Source: an uncultured Candidatus Saccharibacteria bacterium
GTDB taxonomy: Bacteria > Patescibacteriota > Minisyncoccia > Phycocordibacterales > DATDWN01
Direction of reading: 5' to 3'
Assembly: GCA_964426735.1 (NCBI GenBank)
Contig: CAYRRP010000002.1
Location: forward strand, 70,582 to 134,581
Length of the DNA: 64,000 nt
In this document: positions 20,132 to 62,689 of the stretch, in pieces
Position numbering within the stretch: the stretch's first letter is position 1
Layout of the letters: each line of letters starts with the position of its first letter
Notes under the pieces: model-generated
What the model saw: the letters and a program-made list of their open reading frames with translations, nothing else
Told to the model about the DNA's origin: nothing
Database searches by the model: none
Position numbers and translations under genes: made by a program

Positions 20132-21019
20132 ATGGCAAACAGGCACCTTTCCAGATCAATAGTTCTTCAGTCACTCTTTGAGTGGGATTTTAGAAACGAA
20201 AATTTCGAAGAAGCTTTGGAAGTGTTTAAACGTAACGTCGATGAATTTGCTCCCGGTCAGGGAGATTTGGCGTTTATGGAAGGGCTCATGCGAGGTGTTC
20301 TTGAAAAACAAAAAGATCTCGACCTCATTATCGAAAAAGCTGCTCCGGACTGGCCGATCGACAAAATCTCTATTATGGATAGAAATATCCTTCGTCAAGG
20401 TCTCTATGAGCTCCTCTTTGCTGACCGCTCACAGGTACCTCCAAAGGTTGCGATCAATGAAGCAATCGAGCTTGCTAAATCTTTCGGCTCTGATACTTCA
20501 AGCAAGTTTGTAAACGGTGTGCTTGGTGCGGTTTATAAAGAGATCGGAGAACCAGGAAAAGAAGAAACCACAAAAGATAAAAAGAAAATTGGTGGACCGA
20601 TCCCAACAGAATACCTTGGAGGTGCGGTAGTGTATGCAAAAGTCGGTGAAGATATTTATGTAGCACTCGTGCATGATGTATTCGGTCGCTGGACTCTTTC
20701 AAAGGGGCATATTGCGGGGGGCGATGACCAGCCTGCAGAAGTGGCTCAGGCTATCCAAGAAGAGCTCTCTCTACCTGTCACAATCAAAGACAAACTTGGA
20801 ACAAATGAGTATGCAACCTATCATCCAGAGAAAGGAAAGATAAAGAAAAATGTAACCTACTACCTCGCCGAAGCTCCATTTGAAGATATAAAACTCGTAA
20901 ACTCAGGAGGACTCGATGATGCTCGATGGTTTAAATTGGGGGATATATTGGATTTGAATTTTTATAATGATATTCTTCCTCTTATCACAAAAGCAGTAAA
21001 TCTGTTAGTAGCTAAGTAG
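20132..21019 (+). CDS. nusB: Transcription antitermination factor NusB fused to a C-terminal Nudix-fold domain (degenerate Nudix box)
   Basis: The N-terminal 140 aa match NusB (RNILRQGLYELLF...KVAINEAIELAKSFGSDTSSKFVNGVLGAV). The C-terminal 150 aa show a Nudix-fold pattern (VVYAKVGEDIYVALVHDVFGRWTLSKGHIAGGDDQPAEVAQAIQEELSLPV). The RE of the REx2EE box is not conserved. Confidence 0.75.
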   Translation: MANRHLSRSIVLQSLFEWDFRNENFEEALEVFKRNVDEFAPGQGDLAFMEGLMRGVLEKQKDLDLIIEKAAPDWPIDKISIMDRNILRQGLYELLFADRSQVPPKVAINEAIELAKSFGSDTSSKFVNGVLGAVYKEIGEPGKEETTKDKKKIGGPIPTEYLGGAVVYAKVGEDIYVALVHDVFGRWTLSKGHIAGGDDQPAEVAQAIQEELSLPVTIKDKLGTNEYATYHPEKGKIKKNVTYYLAEAPFEDIKLVNSGGLDDARWFKLGDILDLNFYNDILPLITKAVNLLVAK

Positions 21020-21038
21020 ACGGCTCTGGTCTTTTTCA

Positions 21039-21138
21039 CCAATTTCATCGACTAAAATTATAAAAAGGTACTCACCGTACCATTAAGTACGTCTGCGATC
21101 CTTTTTAAATTTTATTCGCGACCTTGGCGAAAAATCCT
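21039..21138. repeat. Palindromic intergenic element, copy A (family of three)
   Basis: Shares the frame CCAATTTCATCGACTAAAATT-AAAAA..apical hairpin..TTTTTAAATTTTATTCGCGACCTTGGC-AAAAATCC with copies at 22344-22441 and 62491-62589. The AT-rich arms are mutually complementary. The apical stem is GGTAC/GTACC. Confidence 0.7.
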
Positions 21139-21181
21139 CAGAGATTCTTTGTATAGTTCTGTGTTTTCAAAAAAATAAAAC

Positions 21182-21227
21182 AAAACTACCTGCGGTTCCT
21201 TTCGAGCAAGGATCCGCAGGTAGTTTA
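21182..21227. terminator. Strong hairpin AAACTACCTGCGG..(nested hairpin)..CCGCAGGTAGTTT
   Basis: 13-bp perfect stem with a nested 5-bp hairpin in the loop. Bidirectional terminator candidate. Confidence 0.6.
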
Positions 21228-21634
21228 TTGGTCTTTTAACTCAAGATCTTTTTGCCTATGACGAAAATCATACCAAAGAGGCTAAAGTATTGAAGCTGTC
21301 TGAATGACTCCACAGCCTCTTGCTTTTTTAGTATATTGAAGGCAAGGGTTACAGTACTTATTAACCCAACTCCAGTAAACATAACGAACAATTGCCATTC
21401 CATTCTTGAATTCTCCTTCGGACACCTTAAGTCTTTTGTCATTCTAAATCAAGTTCGACAAAATAGGTCAAAAGTGGTATTATAGGCCCAAGCTCTTTTG
21501 AGAGACGGATACGAATCTAGAAGTCAGGGTGGGACAAGGTGTCCTTTTCTTACTTTTGGTTTTCTCTCTTGATATGAGTGTACCCGGAGTCTACTTGATG
21601 GACTTGACGGACTTTATAAACTTTTGACTCACAT

Positions 21635-22324
21635 ATGGATTTCACTACATTTGAAAAAAAGGCAGGAATTGATTTTAAAGATAAGGCGCTTTTGAAACAA
21701 GCGTTTGTTCATCGTTCATATATCAACGAAAACAAGTCGTCAGGACTTTCTCATAACGAACGTCTCGAGTTTTTGGGAGATGCAGTGCTTGAGCTCGTGA
21801 TCACAGACTTTCTCTTTCGAGAATACAAAGACCGTGATGAAGGTGAGCTTACTTCATACCGCTCTGCGCTCGTAAATGCGACAACGTGTTCTGATATTGC
21901 TACATCACTCGGGGTCAACGACTACCTTCTTCTGTCAAAAGGAGAGAGTAAAGATATGGGTCGGGCACGACAGTATATCTTGGCAAACACACTTGAGGCT
22001 CTCATCGGTGCAATCTACCTCGACTCTGGATATGATGAAGCAAAGAAGTTTATTGAAACATACTTCACTCCACTCATTGAAAATATAATGAAAGAAGGTT
22101 CTCATATCGATGCAAAGAGTTTGTTCCAAGAAAAAGCACAAGAGTTCGACAGTATCACTCCTGCATACAAAACAATCAAAGAAACAGGACCTGATCATGA
22201 CAAAAAGTTTACGGTAGGAGTATTCCTTGGAAAAGATCTTGTGGCGGAAGGTGAAGGGAAGTCGAAGCAGGATGCGGAGCAGGTCGCGGCACGTGCAGCT
22301 CTTGAAGTCCGTGGCTGGAAATAA
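21635..22324 (+). CDS. rnc: Ribonuclease III
   Basis: RNase III signature ERLEFLGDAVLEL. C-terminal dsRBD. Confidence 0.9.
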   Translation: MDFTTFEKKAGIDFKDKALLKQAFVHRSYINENKSSGLSHNERLEFLGDAVLELVITDFLFREYKDRDEGELTSYRSALVNATTCSDIATSLGVNDYLLLSKGESKDMGRARQYILANTLEALIGAIYLDSGYDEAKKFIETYFTPLIENIMKEGSHIDAKSLFQEKAQEFDSITPAYKTIKETGPDHDKKFTVGVFLGKDLVAEGEGKSKQDAEQVAARAALEVRGWK

Positions 22325-22343
22325 GTTATAAGTTCCACATTTG

Positions 22344-22441
22344 GCCAATCTCATCGACTAAAATTTAAAAATAATTCTCACCTGCGCACTCAGGCAGGCT
22401 TAAATTATTTTTAAATTTTATTCGCGACCTTGCCTCAAATC
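22344..22441. repeat. Palindromic intergenic element, copy B
   Basis: Same conserved arms as copy A. The apical stem is CCTGC/GCAGG (compensatory change). Followed by ACTTCTAGAATAA. Confidence 0.7.
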
Positions 22442-22521
22442 TGAAACTTCTAGAATAAAAGGTAAAAAGTTGATATAAAGGAAAAAGTTCGATAGTGTTT
22501 AGGTAGAGAAAGGAGTTTCCG

Positions 22522-22782
22522 ATGGAATGTTGTGGAGTTATAGTTTCTCGGCAGGAGGACATTGTTGGTCATAGAGACGACGGGTACCTGGCTGAATGTA
22601 TTTTGCCGTATAACCACGAAGGTTCTCATGTGGTTCAAACCCCTGAGGGTGAGTGCTTTTCTTGGAAGGATGACTGGGAATGTGATTGTTGTGATGCAGA
22701 CGAAGATGAACGGTGTTATGTGTATGGTCCGATCGAAGAATCGGAAGTGCGTAAGTTGTTAAAAAAGGGAAGTTCATTGTGA
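22522..22782 (+). CDS. Small acidic cysteine-rich protein (86 aa, 8 Cys)
   Basis: Strong RBS AAAGGAG 7 nt upstream of the ATG. Own terminator at 22782-22812. Motifs CC, CDCC and ERC. Confidence 0.55.
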   Translation: MECCGVIVSRQEDIVGHRDDGYLAECILPYNHEGSHVVQTPEGECFSWKDDWECDCCDADEDERCYVYGPIEESEVRKLLKKGSSL

Positions 22783-23066: not shown

Positions 23067-23230
23067 ATCTACAACAATATTTTAAATCTCGTGCTAAAAT
23101 AATGTAACATTTAAATTTGAATGCAGTTCGAGGCGTGAAGTTTTGTTTGAGACCAAGCTGTACAAGTTGTACTGCGCGGGAACAAACAAAACGAGCAACA
23201 AAGAAATGCGTCAAATTTAGAGGTTACACT

Positions 23231-25486
23231 ATGTACTTAAAATCGATTGAGATTGTTGGTTTCAAATCTTTCGCTAAAAAGAGCGATCTTACTTTTGCAT
23301 CAAAAGTTTCTTCGATTGTTGGTCCGAATGGTTCAGGAAAATCAAATATCGCTGAAGCATTTCGTTTTGTGCTCGGAGAACAATCGATGAAGTCGATGCG
23401 AGGAAAGAAAGGTGAAGATATGATCTGGAATGGTTCTTCGGAAATGCCGAAAGCGGGGAAAGCATCAGTGAAAGTGGTTTTTGATAACTCATCTCGTTTT
23501 CTTCCACTCGATTTTTCAGAGGTGTCACTAGAGCGTGTGGTACACCGAGACTCAGTCAATGAATATTTTATCAATGGCTCTCAGGTGCGTCTCAAAGATG
23601 TGATCGAGCTTCTCGCGGGTGCTCATATTGGTGCATCAGGACATCACATCATTTCTCAAGGTGAAGCAGATCGTATATTGAATGCTTCGGTACGTGAACG
23701 AAAAGGAATGATCGAGGAGGCACTTGGTCTTAAAATCTATCAATACAAAAAAGTAGAGAGTATTAAAAAACTCGATAAGACTCGAGAAAATATTGCACAA
23801 GTGGAATCTTTAAGGCGAGAAATCGCTCCGCATATTCGTTATCTTAAAAAACAGGTTGAAAAAGTAGAAAAAGCAATTGAATTTAAACATGAACTCCTCG
23901 GACTTTCTTTAGAGTATCTTAAGCGTGAAGATGACTATATCAAACGCATTCATGCAGAGATTGCTTCACAAAAAAATCCTCTCGAAGCTGAATATCGTCA
24001 TGTACAAGATCAGTTGTATAAGATAAAAGAGCAGTTAAAAAATGCAGAGCATAAAGATGCAAAAAGTGCTGAGCTTGTTGTGCTTGAGGAACAGATACAG
24101 TCTGTGAGACAGAAAAAAGATGCACTGGTACGAGATATGGGACGTATCGAAGGAGAGATTTCATCTCAAATGCGCCTCATTAAAAAACAAGAAGAGCTTG
24201 CACGGAGTAATGAATGGAAGACAGTGCAGCTCCGAGCGGTAGAAGACCTCCACTCACAAGTCTTTGAACTTATGGGTCATGTAGAGCATGCCGTAGACCC
24301 ACAGACAGTAAAATCTTCAATACAGGCAATTCGTGATCTTCTTAAAGCGTTTGTGGAAATGCATCGAGATACAGTAGATACTACTCTCATCAAAGAAGCA
24401 GAATTTGAAATACAAAAATTAAGTGAAGAGCGTACTCATATAGAGCTACGAATCGCTGAGGTCACTCAGGAAGAGAAAGTTGCGCATACCGCGTATGAAT
24501 CTCTCAAACGTTCAATTGAAAGAGAAAAAGATACAAATCGAGATGCGGAGAAGGAACTTTTCATTCTCATGTCTAAAGAGCAGAATGTGTTGGGTGAACT
24601 TCGCACACTTGAATCAAAAGAAGCTCAAGCACGAGTACTTGAAGAAGATTTTAAGCGAGAAGTAACAGAACTCTCAATGTTTTTAGGGAGGGATGTTCTT
24701 GCGTTTGGAGAAAAAGAGTATTCTCTGATAGAAGGTAGAGAGGTGCAAGAAGAGCGAAGACGAAAAATAGAAAAAATAAAAATTAGACTCGAGGATTCAG
24801 GTGGAATCGGAGGAGGTGAGACAGTGAAAGAATATGAAGAAGCGCTCGAACGAGATCAGTTTCTCGAACGAGAACTCGCTGACCTTTCACATACTGCAGA
24901 ATCCCTCGCAAGTCTTATTGGCGAGCTGGATGCAAAAATCGCATCTGAATTTACGGTAGGTGTGGAGAAAATCAACCGACAGTTTAGTGAATACTTTGCG
25001 ATGATGTTTGGAGGAGGAGAAGCAAAGCTCTCTGTTATCAGAGAACAAAGGGTGAAAAAGAAATCAGACCTCGACAACCTTTCTCCTGAGCCGGGCTCGA
25101 GGGAAGAAGAGGTGGATGAAGAAGAGGGTGAAGCGGGAATTGATATTGAGGTGTCGCTCCCACGTAAGAAAGTGAAAGGACTCATTATGCTCTCAGGAGG
25201 TGAGCGAGCGCTTACGTCTATTGCACTTCTTTTTGCTATCTCTCAAGTAAATCCTCCACCATTTATTATTCTCGATGAAACAGATGCAGCACTTGATGAA
25301 GCAAATTCTCGCAAGTATGGAGATATGATTGAAACGCTTTCAAAGTTCTCTCAACTTATTGTGATTACTCACAACCGAGAAACTATGTCTCGTGCCGGAG
25401 CGCTTTACGGAGTGACGATGGGGCAGGGTGGGGTTTCAAAATTACTTACTGTCTCCTTTGAAGACGCTGTGGCAGTGGCTAAGTAA
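23231..25486 (+). CDS. smc: SMC-family chromosome partition ATPase, short hinge-less form (751 aa)
   Basis: N-terminus MYLKSIEIVGFKSFA...GPNGSGKSN (Walker A). C-terminus LSGGERALTSIALLFAI...ILDETDAALD (signature plus Walker B) and the QGGVSKL terminal motif. Long coiled-coil middle with no Gly-rich hinge and no CxxC hook. Start set at the SMC-like Met, not the upstream in-frame extension. Confidence 0.8.
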   Translation: MYLKSIEIVGFKSFAKKSDLTFASKVSSIVGPNGSGKSNIAEAFRFVLGEQSMKSMRGKKGEDMIWNGSSEMPKAGKASVKVVFDNSSRFLPLDFSEVSLERVVHRDSVNEYFINGSQVRLKDVIELLAGAHIGASGHHIISQGEADRILNASVRERKGMIEEALGLKIYQYKKVESIKKLDKTRENIAQVESLRREIAPHIRYLKKQVEKVEKAIEFKHELLGLSLEYLKREDDYIKRIHAEIASQKNPLEAEYRHVQDQLYKIKEQLKNAEHKDAKSAELVVLEEQIQSVRQKKDALVRDMGRIEGEISSQMRLIKKQEELARSNEWKTVQLRAVEDLHSQVFELMGHVEHAVDPQTVKSSIQAIRDLLKAFVEMHRDTVDTTLIKEAEFEIQKLSEERTHIELRIAEVTQEEKVAHTAYESLKRSIEREKDTNRDAEKELFILMSKEQNVLGELRTLESKEAQARVLEEDFKREVTELSMFLGRDVLAFGEKEYSLIEGREVQEERRRKIEKIKIRLEDSGGIGGGETVKEYEEALERDQFLERELADLSHTAESLASLIGELDAKIASEFTVGVEKINRQFSEYFAMMFGGGEAKLSVIREQRVKKKSDLDNLSPEPGSREEEVDEEEGEAGIDIEVSLPRKKVKGLIMLSGGERALTSIALLFAISQVNPPPFIILDETDAALDEANSRKYGDMIETLSKFSQLIVITHNRETMSRAGALYGVTMGQGGVSKLLTVSFEDAVAVAK

Positions 25487-26130: not shown

Positions 26131-26156
26131 AAAAAACCCTTTCGGGCTTTTTCCAA
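26131..26156 (+). terminator. Weak intrinsic terminator AAAAAACCC-TTTC-GGGCTTTTT
   Basis: Short GC stem with flanking A/T runs after the DUF3800-like gene. Confidence 0.4.
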
Positions 26157-26379
26157 CCACGCTCCTAGACTAGGTGTCCTAGCCACGCCACCGTCCGGTG
26201 ACTGTTTGGAATACAGGTTTGTGTACATACACAATACCAGGTTTTAGATGATTAGGCAATGAAGAAGTGGATAACTCAGTCGTCGACTATTTGTCGACAA
26301 CTGAACCTATAAATATTTGAGGTTGTGATATTTTGTCATGGGTTGAAGTTAGAGGCTTTAAATGAGAAAATAAACCATT

Positions 26380-30446: not shown

Positions 30447-30659
30447 GTTCCTTATAATCTGAATATTTGAGCAAGGTTCTAGGCGGACAAGAAAAATAAT
30501 TGGAGACATACTGTCGTATGATGAGGATTATTTTTTGAAGTCCAACAACGAAATTTGCCAAATATGCAGATTATAGTAAAAGTTATCCGTTGACGTGCTC
30601 TTGCACCTCAACATACAATTATACTGTACTACCTTTACCAGTAACTGAATGCATATTTT

Positions 30660-30974
30660 ATGGAACACGATACACAATTTTTAGACTTTGTTATTAAAGC
30701 ACTTGTAGAAAACCCACAGGATGTAAAGATCAATCGAACTGTTGATGAGATGGGCGTATTGATGACTTTGGATGTAAATCCAGCAGACATGGGTAAAATC
30801 ATTGGACGAGAAGGGAATACGGCGAAAGCAATCCGAACACTTTTGCGAGTAGTAGGAATGAAAAACAACGCTCGAGTAAACCTCAAGATCAATGAGCCAG
30901 CAGGAGGGATGGAAAAAAGCTCTTCATCTGCGACAAAATCGCTCGACGACGCAATGGCTGACCTCAAGCTTTAA
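30660..30974 (+). CDS. KH-domain RNA-binding protein (YlqC/UPF0109 family)
   Basis: Motif GKIIGREGNTAKAIRTLL. Conserved position after rpsP. Confidence 0.8.
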   Translation: MEHDTQFLDFVIKALVENPQDVKINRTVDEMGVLMTLDVNPADMGKIIGREGNTAKAIRTLLRVVGMKNNARVNLKINEPAGGMEKSSSSATKSLDDAMADLKL

Positions 30975-31077
30975 TTAAGGAAACAAAAACCACTCGATTT
31001 GAGTGGTTTTTGTTTATCTCGAAAAAGTTGCACGTTTGTCTTTTTTATGTTTTTATAGTCGCAGGAGCTAACAAAAA

Positions 31078-47996: not shown

Positions 47997-48146
47997 CAGA
48001 TCTTTTGACATAGTATCTGAAGCAAATTAAATTGCTTCAGATACGCGACGCGGAAGCGTTTGAGTATGAGCCGTACAGTCGTACGGTGAGTGCTCAAACG
48101 TGAACCGTAACAAAGTAGATGAGGTAATTTTATTTGTCTTCACACT

Positions 48147-51144: not shown

Positions 51145-51168
51145 TAACAAGTATCAGATTTTTTTATT

Positions 51169-51303
51169 GCTTTGTAACTTTTTAGAGGCAATCTATCTAG
51201 CCCTGGTGGGCTAGCGAACTGCTCGTCGTTCAAGAAAATTATAGACCGAATACAGTCTTAATTTTCTAAACTCCTGCGCAAGGCCTCTAAAAAGTTACAA
51301 AGC
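51169..51303. repeat. Conserved structured element family 2, copy 2 (short form)
   Basis: 21-bp perfect outer stem GCTTTGTAACTTTTTAGAGGC / GCCTCTAAAAAGTTACAAAGC. Encloses the same conserved blocks as 36047-36324, including the CTAGCCC-TGGT-GGGCTAG hairpin. Confidence 0.65.
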
Positions 51304-51400
51304 AAACAAAATCTTGATTAGGTAGTGTTAAAAACAAAAAGGCCTTGAAGGTCTTTTTGTTTGTAGGTGGGGTGTGATAAAATTCACACGGAGGGAAGTG

Positions 51401-62466: not shown

Positions 62467-62490
62467 ATATGTTACGTCAGGTCTTTTTAA

Positions 62491-62589
62491 CCAATTTCAT
62501 CTTCTAAAATTTAAAAATAATTTTCACCTACACAAATAGGTAGGCTCAAATTCTTTGTAAATTTTATAAGCGACCTTGGTCAAAAATCC
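62491..62589. repeat. Palindromic intergenic element, copy C
   Basis: Same conserved arms as copies A and B. Apical stem CCTAC/GTAGG. Located in the divergent region upstream of typA. Confidence 0.65.
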
Positions 62590-62689
62590 ACTGACTTGTG
62601 AATTAATGATTAATTTACGAGTCTTTCCTAAAAGAGCCATAATTAAAGCATGTTTTGGGGGAGTTTGTCAAAAGGTTGGGATGCGGTAC

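Follow-up and report, generated by a model that had tools for sequence, protein, structure and literature searches.

A family of ERIC- and REP-like palindromic repeats at gene boundaries in Saccharibacteria-like Patescibacteria and its possible role at mRNA ends

ERIC and NEMIS repeats are co-transcribed and influence mRNA stability in an orientation-dependent manner via RNase E or RNase III, with the ribosome exposing the cleavage site; for ERIC, the effect on the stability of the upstream mRNA is triggered by a ribosome at the nearby stop codon (PMC2229807). REP units are described as 20–40 bp long and as bearing a GTAG or CGTC tag at one end (PMC3733652). Here, we analyzed a family of interspersed imperfect palindromes of about 120–135 nt, each a rod-like hairpin, that is represented by three main copies and one or two diverged ones in a covariance-model search of 64,000 nt of DNA (the window) from an uncultured Candidatus Saccharibacteria bacterium (contig CAYRRP010000002.1 of assembly GCA_964426735.1, positions 70,582 to 134,581 of the forward strand). 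The ERIC/REP/NEMIS class of transcribed palindromic repeats is the closest known kind, and we think that the family may work in the same general way. Our favored but tentative interpretation is that it constitutes a new family of ERIC/REP-like transcribed palindromic repeats that has putatively been co-opted as RNA hairpin modules at the ends of mRNAs.

Like ERIC/IRU (127 bp), the family consists of intergenic imperfect palindromes of about 125 nt that form one long stem-loop and lie in either orientation beside genes, and it would resemble ERIC in being transcribed. It differs in its host lineage, in a strict polarity to open reading frame (ORF) boundaries with the well-folding strand mostly antisense, and in that neither the TA ends nor the target-site duplications of ERIC (PMC2229807) were seen. 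REP, BIME and REPIN elements are likewise extragenic high-copy palindromes past stop codons or in operons, with a proposed role in mRNA stabilization and strand-specific pairing, and REPINs are inverted doublets that form hairpins of about 100 nt. In contrast to these, the family is a single 120–135-nt unit, shows by eye no GTAG or CGTC tag at either end in our alignments, and retains its sequence between genomes with only 56–65% identity at synonymous sites; no RAYT or other transposase was found among the ORFs scanned in the 2–15 kb of DNA examined around each copy. Correia/NEMIS elements (100–155 bp) are similarly A+T-rich, intergenic and co-transcribed, and their hairpins alter neighboring mRNAs as RNase III substrates (PMC2229807). 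They possess 24-bp terminal inverted repeats, TA duplications and clean filled and empty sites, whereas the present family has no duplication or sharp end, and its conserved part is the stem interior rather than the termini. A preliminary description of this DNA had suggested a REP/BIME-like element or a small palindromic repeat, which is the right general kind. To our knowledge, the family bears no sequence resemblance to the ERIC consensus. Wilson and Sharp reportedly found in 2006 that orthologous ERIC copies are conserved between species.

The three main copies (A, B and C) lie where the preliminary description had placed them, and their arm motifs occur exactly three times each in the window, compared to 0.02 and 0.08 occurrences expected from shuffles. 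Aligned with each other, they show a mean column identity of 78%, and each forms a single long hairpin of about 120 nt (z-scores −7.6 to −8.3, minus strand). The palindrome had thus been recognized, but its extent, put at about 100 nt, was underestimated, since further covarying outer stems bring each copy to about 120 nt. The AT-rich arm originally quoted, CTAAAATTTAAAAATAATT, is that of B and C, while A has CTAAAATTATAAAAAGG; similarly, the apical stems CCTGC/GCAGG (B) and CCTAC/GTAGG (C) were given correctly, but the homologous stem of A is CGTAC/GTACG and not GGTAC/GTACC. The plus strand had been taken as the folded form; it is the minus strand that folds better, with −40, −45 and −37.5 kcal/mol for A, B and C versus −28.7, −31.2 and −23.9 kcal/mol for the plus strand.

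On the well-folding strand, the conserved irregular core reads CAAGG-UCGCGUAU-AAAAUUU ... AAAUUUU-AGACGAUGAG-AUUGG. Two types of outer stem enclose it: type 1 (A and C) is GGAUUUUU...AAAAAGACC with a further covarying 5–6 bp, and type 2 (B) is AACUUUCAGAUUUGAG...CCAAAUCUGGAAGUU. Above the outer stem, the rod continues with CAA/UUG, a GG/GA internal loop, and a UCGCGU/ACGA-UGA segment that contains a bulged A and a nearly invariant G-U pair and is followed by an A.G mismatch; its upper part comprises a long covarying A/U-rich stem, a GAG/UGAG loop and a variable apical hairpin. The internal loops are purine-rich on the well-folding strand. We drew this rod by hand as a structure of 49 pairs and scored it on two separately gathered sets, 51 genome-derived copies and 75 distinct metagenome copies. 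In the genome set, 90.1% of the cells were paired and 34 of the 49 pairs contained double changes; the 315 double-changed cells compare with 102 ± 9 in shuffles, none of 500 of which reached the observed value, and a control with slid partners lowered the pairing to 33–52%. The metagenome set gave corresponding values of 88.6% paired cells and double changes in 37 of the 49 pairs (536 versus 172 cells, again with none of 500 shuffles at the observed value). The selection on structure that had been proposed from three copies is consequently borne out by covariation far above the controls. Coding potential as a general property of the element was considered and rejected; one open frame runs through a copy at locus L011, but copy B contains an in-frame stop.

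To assemble the family, we searched one-genome-per-species contigs with an exact 18-base right-arm pattern, which returned 74 stretches, 45 of them with the whole element. A covariance model was built from 44 copies. A less biased, gapped pattern applied to metagenome contigs yielded at least 120 stretches, and the covariance model confirmed all 80 of the 80 loci fetched. Altogether, genome and metagenome contigs supplied about 200 confirmed copies, every one from related Patescibacteria and up to four of them within 3 kb (locus L074), so that the multi-copy family expected in the preliminary description indeed exists well beyond the window. The fetched loci carried about one extra, non-ascertained copy per 20–40 kb, and extrapolation from this density suggests dozens of occupied sites in each genome. 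Short-read contigs with the rnc gene of the window end inside copies A and B (one end of L001 and both ends of L002, at window positions 21104 and 22395), which independently indicates that the genome contains the arms more than once.

The host labels of the copies span several Patescibacteria groups, and a distribution across the entire candidate phyla radiation was suggested by the names of metagenome-assembled genomes. We rejected it, as the loci labeled Zambryskibacteria, Daviesbacteria, Paceibacterota and Parcubacteria share genes that are 67–98% identical to those of Saccharibacteria-labeled loci or of the window. We therefore claim only one related lineage, and the family is most likely confined to a single, Saccharibacteria-like lineage of Patescibacteria. 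Some contig labels conflict with each other or with their content. Locus L040, labeled Daviesbacteria, is 98% identical over 4.8 kb to L066, labeled Paceibacterota, and L035 and L068 stem from contigs binned as Nitrospira/Nitrospiraceae in which the element stands beside Saccharibacteria-like genes; this suggests mis-binning or unreliable labels. Pattern matches outside the Patescibacteria (Agaribacter, Bacteroidota and others) were dismissed as chance, since the left arm is absent and the covariance model does not recognize them. In Agaribacter flavus (L007, L008, L013 and L044), the 18-base search pattern is contained by chance in an unrelated repeat of at least 140 nt with at least four near-identical copies. 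A scan of the whole window against Rfam 15 at the gathering thresholds revealed no family for the element, its sole match being DUF3800-IX elsewhere, and a scan of positions 20980–22480 at E ≤ 10 gave only chance microRNA-type matches of 17–21 bits. Collections of phages and plasmids contained no match to the element, and the three IMG/VR viral contigs that matched one right-arm pattern did so by chance, none being recognized by the covariance model. Literature searches directed at the element turned up no description of it.

We called the genes around the copies with a codon-usage score and analyzed 141 non-redundant copies for their context. With its 3′ end, the well-folding strand adjoins the boundary of an ORF; this is a stop codon in 103 copies (77%) and a start codon in 30 (23%). 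At stop codons, where the neighboring gene is convergent, the median distance is −4, and 85 of the 103 copies fall into an 8-nt window at the hairpin foot; at start codons, where the gene is co-directional, it is +4.5, and the ATG follows 10–25 nt past the stem. At the 5′ end, the spacing is loose (medians 70–77 nt). When the 5′ and 3′ neighbors are classified relative to the folded strand, 72 copies are opposite/opposite, 25 same/opposite, 17 same/same and 11 opposite/same.

Copies A, B and C illustrate both arrangements, and the gene contexts named in the preliminary description (after nusB-NUDIX, after rnc, upstream of typA) were correct. The hairpin foot of copy A lies 4 nt past the TAG stop codon (21017–21019) of the nusB-NUDIX gene, to which its well-folding strand is antisense, and that of copy B lies 5 nt past the TAA stop codon of rnc (22322–22324), the strand being antisense to rnc and to the next gene (22522–22782, plus strand). 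Copy C is found in the typA 5′ leader in sense orientation, its hairpin ending 9 nt ahead of the ATG (62466–62464). The hexamers and spacing of the predicted typA promoter are conserved in L056 and L004, and in L069 as TTGACT...TTTAAT; from its position, copy C would lie inside the 5′ untranslated region of typA. Other leader copies precede nusA, clpP, ftsZ, infC, nrdB, rsmH, rplT, tuf and rplU, and conserved predicted promoters are located upstream of the hairpins. Their linkers to the ATG are A/C-rich, e.g., ACAACAAUAUG, and lack a Shine-Dalgarno sequence (L009, L037, L068, L024, L038 and L069; window positions 62467–62475), unlike other genes of the window, which possess a clear GGAGG. The typA leader of L069 contains an additional terminator-like hairpin, GCCGGCCTTGCCGGCTTTTG, between promoter and element (near 7890–7930).

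In L074, stop-codon copies punctuate rpsM-rpsK-rpsD-rpoA-rplQ-rplM, the element standing after rpsM, rpsK, rpsD and rplQ of the alpha operon. The four same-orientation copies of this locus raised the possibility of integron cassettes, which was rejected with the identification of the genes as the alpha operon. Two copies facing inwards enclose each of the genes tuf, rplU, nrdB and ftsZ (L106 4673–6191, L097 6512–7110, L137 4801–6084 and L024 4635–6111, respectively); in each case, the 5′ leader contains the well-folding strand, and the copy at the stop codon is inverted.

The copies are also strongly conserved at orthologous loci, a property that, like the polarity to ORF boundaries, had been missed in the preliminary description. 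Locus L030 and the window share synteny from nusB through rnc to SMC. Its orthologue of copy A is 90.3% identical over 134 nt without a gap, whereas the flanking genes reach 56–57% at their third codon positions and the neighboring intergenic DNA 64%; the stem changes between the two copies are three compensatory double changes. Copy C is 97–98% identical in four related genomes, versus 60–65% at the third codon positions of typA, and a more distant typA orthologue (L069; 73% protein identity) carries the element at the same distance to the ATG. Among the more closely related orthologous pairs, nearly all stem changes either are compensatory or preserve a wobble pair, and none leads to A.C. 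The element evolves at about the rate of first and second codon positions. Paralogous copies within one genome are about 78% alike and therefore below the orthologues, so that gene conversion is not the cause of the conservation. These comparisons indicate strong purifying selection on the copies in place.

At the same time, the family is gained, lost and partly swapped between loci. Comparison of presence and absence revealed that copies B and E (a possible distant relative; Table 1) are missing at the matching intergenic sites of L030, with no clean excision footprint visible. The nearest relative of copy B (93%) resides at a different locus, L014, in the genome of L030. Two copies of L074, at 6696 and 7270 and thus 574 nt apart, are identical over about 105 nt, and near-identical adjacent copies were also seen for L027 and L029. 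In the ftsZ leader, the outer stem is the same in L068 and L024, but the core is of the main type in the former and of the D type (Table 1) in the latter, and the two copies that bracket tuf share an unusual, locus-specific outer stem.

The two strands of the element are not equivalent. In 122 of 122 non-redundant copies, the strand equivalent to the minus strand of the window folds better, with means of −51.8 versus −37.4 kcal/mol and 3.9 versus 0.5 G-U pairs. Since this energy gap is largely inherited from the conserved core, we counted the variable positions separately, with the three consensus G-U pairs excluded. These comprise 158 G-U pairs versus 48 A.C mismatches (125 versus 33 in the stop-codon copies), and the bias favors the well-folding strand in every context class. 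It is strongest in tight operons (41 versus 5), in which 22 copies leave 35 nt or less between the element and the start of the next gene. The usual transcription- or replication-linked deamination biases would run opposite to the observed one. The GC skew places the folding strand of A to C on the leading-strand template. Three alternatives would be compatible with the strand bias: a hairpin RNA made in antisense, a form as single-stranded DNA, or filtering at the step at which the element is copied.

In the interpretation that we favor, the copies would be co-transcribed with their neighbors and serve as RNA structure modules at mRNA boundaries; the structure, its covariation, the strand asymmetry, the polarity, the conservation and the turnover are observed, and transcription, the effect on the mRNAs and a protein partner are the parts of this model that we infer. 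About one-quarter of the copies present the well-folding strand in the 5′ leader, ending 10–25 nt before the start codon of a housekeeping gene. In about three-quarters, the inverted element touches the stop codon of the upstream gene with its foot, as it does after nusB-NUDIX and rnc, and ribosomes that terminate there would open up the outer stem. Depending on its orientation, the element would alter the stability of the mRNA or its processing, as an obstacle to exonucleases or as a point of entry for RNase III or RNase E, and a protein would recognize the conserved core. The family would originally have been a repeat element, as suggested by gain and loss, near-identical neighbors and core swapping, whose resident copies are kept by purifying selection.

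Several observations weigh against this interpretation. In 103 of 133 copies (77%), the strand that tolerates G-U and avoids A.C runs antisense to the gene that it adjoins, and such an antisense pairing bias, strongest in operons, is not predicted for a purely co-transcribed 3′ element. Tight operons leave little promoter room for an antisense transcript, and we detected neither a peak of −10-like hexamers at a fixed distance upstream of the hairpin nor a convincing outward-facing promoter; from the conserved CCTTGNNN end, there was a weak excess at 15–16-nt spacers only. An element-owned promoter at a fixed distance was accordingly rejected on both sides. Copy D violates the polarity rule, its 5′ end adjoining the stop codon. 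Moreover, the conventional terminators of the window likewise begin 0–11 nt past stop codons, so that part of the tight spacing may be plain genome streamlining.

A more far-reaching interpretation, which we regard as doubtful, is that the family represents a lineage-wide module recognized by a protein in single-stranded form (RNA or DNA), with a fixed polarity to ORF boundaries, and not a passive ERIC-like repeat. It is suggested by the antisense position of the pairing-selected strand even in ribosomal-protein operons, and by the inward bracketing of tuf, rplU, nrdB and ftsZ. If true, this would amount to a previously undescribed genome-wide punctuation system in bacteria with very few regulators, in which hairpin RNAs directed against gene ends might insulate or regulate them, or inverted pairs at the 5′ and 3′ sides might couple both ends of an mRNA. 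Patescibacteria possess genomes of about 1 Mb, and we know of little that has been described on their gene regulation. The genes at whose boundaries the copies stand are core ones, mostly for translation and division (tuf, ribosomal proteins, nusA, infC, ftsZ, typA, rnc and nusB), and the family is a strong candidate for a general module of post-transcriptional control or of mRNA ends in this lineage, possibly as a binding site for a protein. The element also breaks short-read assemblies, could be used as a lineage marker, and offers a testable cis element for cultured Saccharibacteria.

Selfish, non-autonomous mobile DNA (a miniature inverted-repeat transposable element [MITE], a REPIN or an IS200/IS605 derivative), whose hairpin would be offered as single-stranded DNA to a transposase acting in trans and whose copies would be tolerated at gene boundaries, is in our view an unlikely explanation. 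It accommodates the differences in presence between genomes that are about 80% identical, the near-identical adjacent copies of L074, L027 and L029, the location of the closest relative of B at a different locus in another genome, the exchange of cores among loci that retain their own outer stems, and the assemblies that break within copies; a strand-specific pairing bias would be expected from a single-strand intermediate that is filtered at each copying step. However, the flanks of 45 copies contained no target-site duplications, TA ends, or sharp or defined termini, the palindrome running a variable distance into locus-specific flanks. No parent element, with its arms parted by a gene, was present among the about 200 matches, no transposase was seen among the neighboring ORFs examined, all of which are housekeeping genes, and neither the phage and plasmid collections nor the viral contigs that matched the pattern yielded a confirmed copy. 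A transposase between inverted copies was considered and rejected, the ORFs being tuf, rplU, nrdB and gap. The conservation of orthologous copies exceeds both that of synonymous sites and the similarity of same-genome paralogues, which requires selection in place. The mobile palindrome of the preliminary description therefore fails in the classical MITE sense on target-site duplication, and no parent element was seen among these matches. We judge it quite unlikely that each element forms a small independent transcription unit or serves to stop and fold antisense transcripts. In that case, the well-folding strand would be transcribed in the direction of the 3′ end of the neighboring gene, and the hairpin RNA so formed would be either a punctuation mark against antisense read-in or a cis-antisense or trans-acting regulator. 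The antisense position of the well-folding strand with its 3′ end at the stop codon, its better fold in every copy, the ratio of G-U to A.C in all context classes and the room that is always available on the 5′ side would suit such units. They are difficult to reconcile with the missing upstream peak of −10-like hexamers, the strongest bias in precisely those 22 operon copies with little space to the next gene, the lack of a consistent U-tract after the hairpin, and the about one-quarter of copies that are plainly 5′ leaders and need read-through.

A terminator family had also been proposed in the preliminary description, and we consider intrinsic terminators, possibly bidirectional, very improbable. 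The elements resemble terminators in their position directly past stop codons and in the A-rich and U-rich flanks around a GC-richer apical stem, and in a simple terminator scan the minus-strand apices of A and B are flagged. Yet the stem is followed by no U-tract, the 8 nt after the hairpin containing on average 3.3 U (strong sense) or 2.9 U (weak sense) for copies at stop codons and 1.9 U for those in leaders, and the U-rich arm begins only 5–8 nt past the apical stem. The hairpin is about 50 bp long, its irregular conserved core of about 40 nt would be superfluous for termination, the G-U pairs are on the wrong strand for the preceding gene, and copies stand between the promoter and the start codon of essential genes and between the genes of the alpha operon. 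Ordinary terminators coexist with the family in the window. A site acting at the level of DNA, as a cruciform or single-strand hairpin for a recombinase or an architectural protein (attC-like, or BIME-like for gyrase or IHF), seems to us exceedingly improbable. As with attC sites, a structure-conserved imperfect palindrome of a size comparable to 57–141 nt starts at the preceding stop codon, its folded strand is antisense to that ORF in the manner of attC bottom strands, and unpaired bases are conserved; the position of the folding strand on the leading-strand template would also agree with such a site. The AAC...GTT of the attC core sites is present at the foot of type-2 copies (AACTTCC...GGAAGTT) but absent from type-1 copies such as A and C. 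In contrast to cassettes, the genes flanked by copies are essential housekeeping genes (rnc, rpsM/K/D, rpoA-rplQ, tuf, gap, nrdB and rplU), copies are also found in 5′ leaders, one gene can have copies of opposite orientation around it, and the DNA examined around the copies revealed no integrase. Double-stranded DNA or a cruciform would not yield the bias of 3.3 to 1 for G-U over A.C.

Table 1. Copies of the repeat family and associated features in the 64-kb window.
Feature	Position	Strand	Basis and remarks
Copy A, outer-stem type 1	21024–21143	−	Covariance model 126 bits; fold −49.4 kcal/mol, z −7.6
Copy B, outer-stem type 2	22330–22449	−	Covariance model 144.7 bits; fold −53.0 kcal/mol, z −8.2
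Copy C, outer-stem type 1	62476–62595	−	Covariance model 135 bits; fold −44.7 kcal/mol, z −8.3
Copy D, diverged subfamily, core GUUCUAGGCGGAC...GUCCAACAACGAAAU	30452–30576	+	Covariance model 47 bits, E 6.6e-10, plus strand only
Copy E, possible distant relative	23099–23232	+	Covariance model 23 bits, E 0.004 (weak); fold −46.4 kcal/mol, z −5.9
Predicted typA promoter, TTGACA-18 nt-TTTAAT	62642–62671	−	Consensus match read from sequence
GC-rich terminator-like hairpin with minus-strand T-run, not a family member	21172–21237		Between copy A and the minus-strand small ORF 21236–21442

The diverged copy D is positioned between rpsP (S16) and khpA and begins 5 nt past the rpsP stop codon. It folds with −41 kcal/mol (z −6.5; −38.6 kcal/mol for the opposite strand), and its subtype recurs in L024, L068, L015, L067 and L060. 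The stretch 30657–30976 was considered as a possible non-coding RNA and rejected, as it is the khpA gene. Copy E is a long rod hairpin directly upstream of SMC whose 3′ foot lies at the SMC start codon (23231), with a GAGG directly past the conserved outer stem; positions 6524–6633 of L063 are 79% identical to it. The conventional hairpin beside copy A indicates that this genome uses ordinary terminators. The gene in front of copy A (20132–21019, plus strand) encodes a protein in which a NusB and a NUDIX hydrolase domain are fused.

Further structured sequences were noted elsewhere in the window. A perfect palindrome of 16 + 16 nt (48013–48044, plus strand) follows a gene for 1223 amino acids, and the tip of a nearby hairpin (48057–48100, plus strand), GAGCCGUAC-AGUC-GUACGGUGAG, equals the apical module of the family without the family arms. 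Another long inverted repeat, with 29-nt arms that are 93% complementary and 93 nt apart, lies between two large genes (51161–51311) and is not recognized by the covariance model of the family. The only Rfam match of the window above the gathering score is a DUF3800-IX RNA at 26151–26219 on the minus strand (48.1 bits versus a threshold of 36.8).

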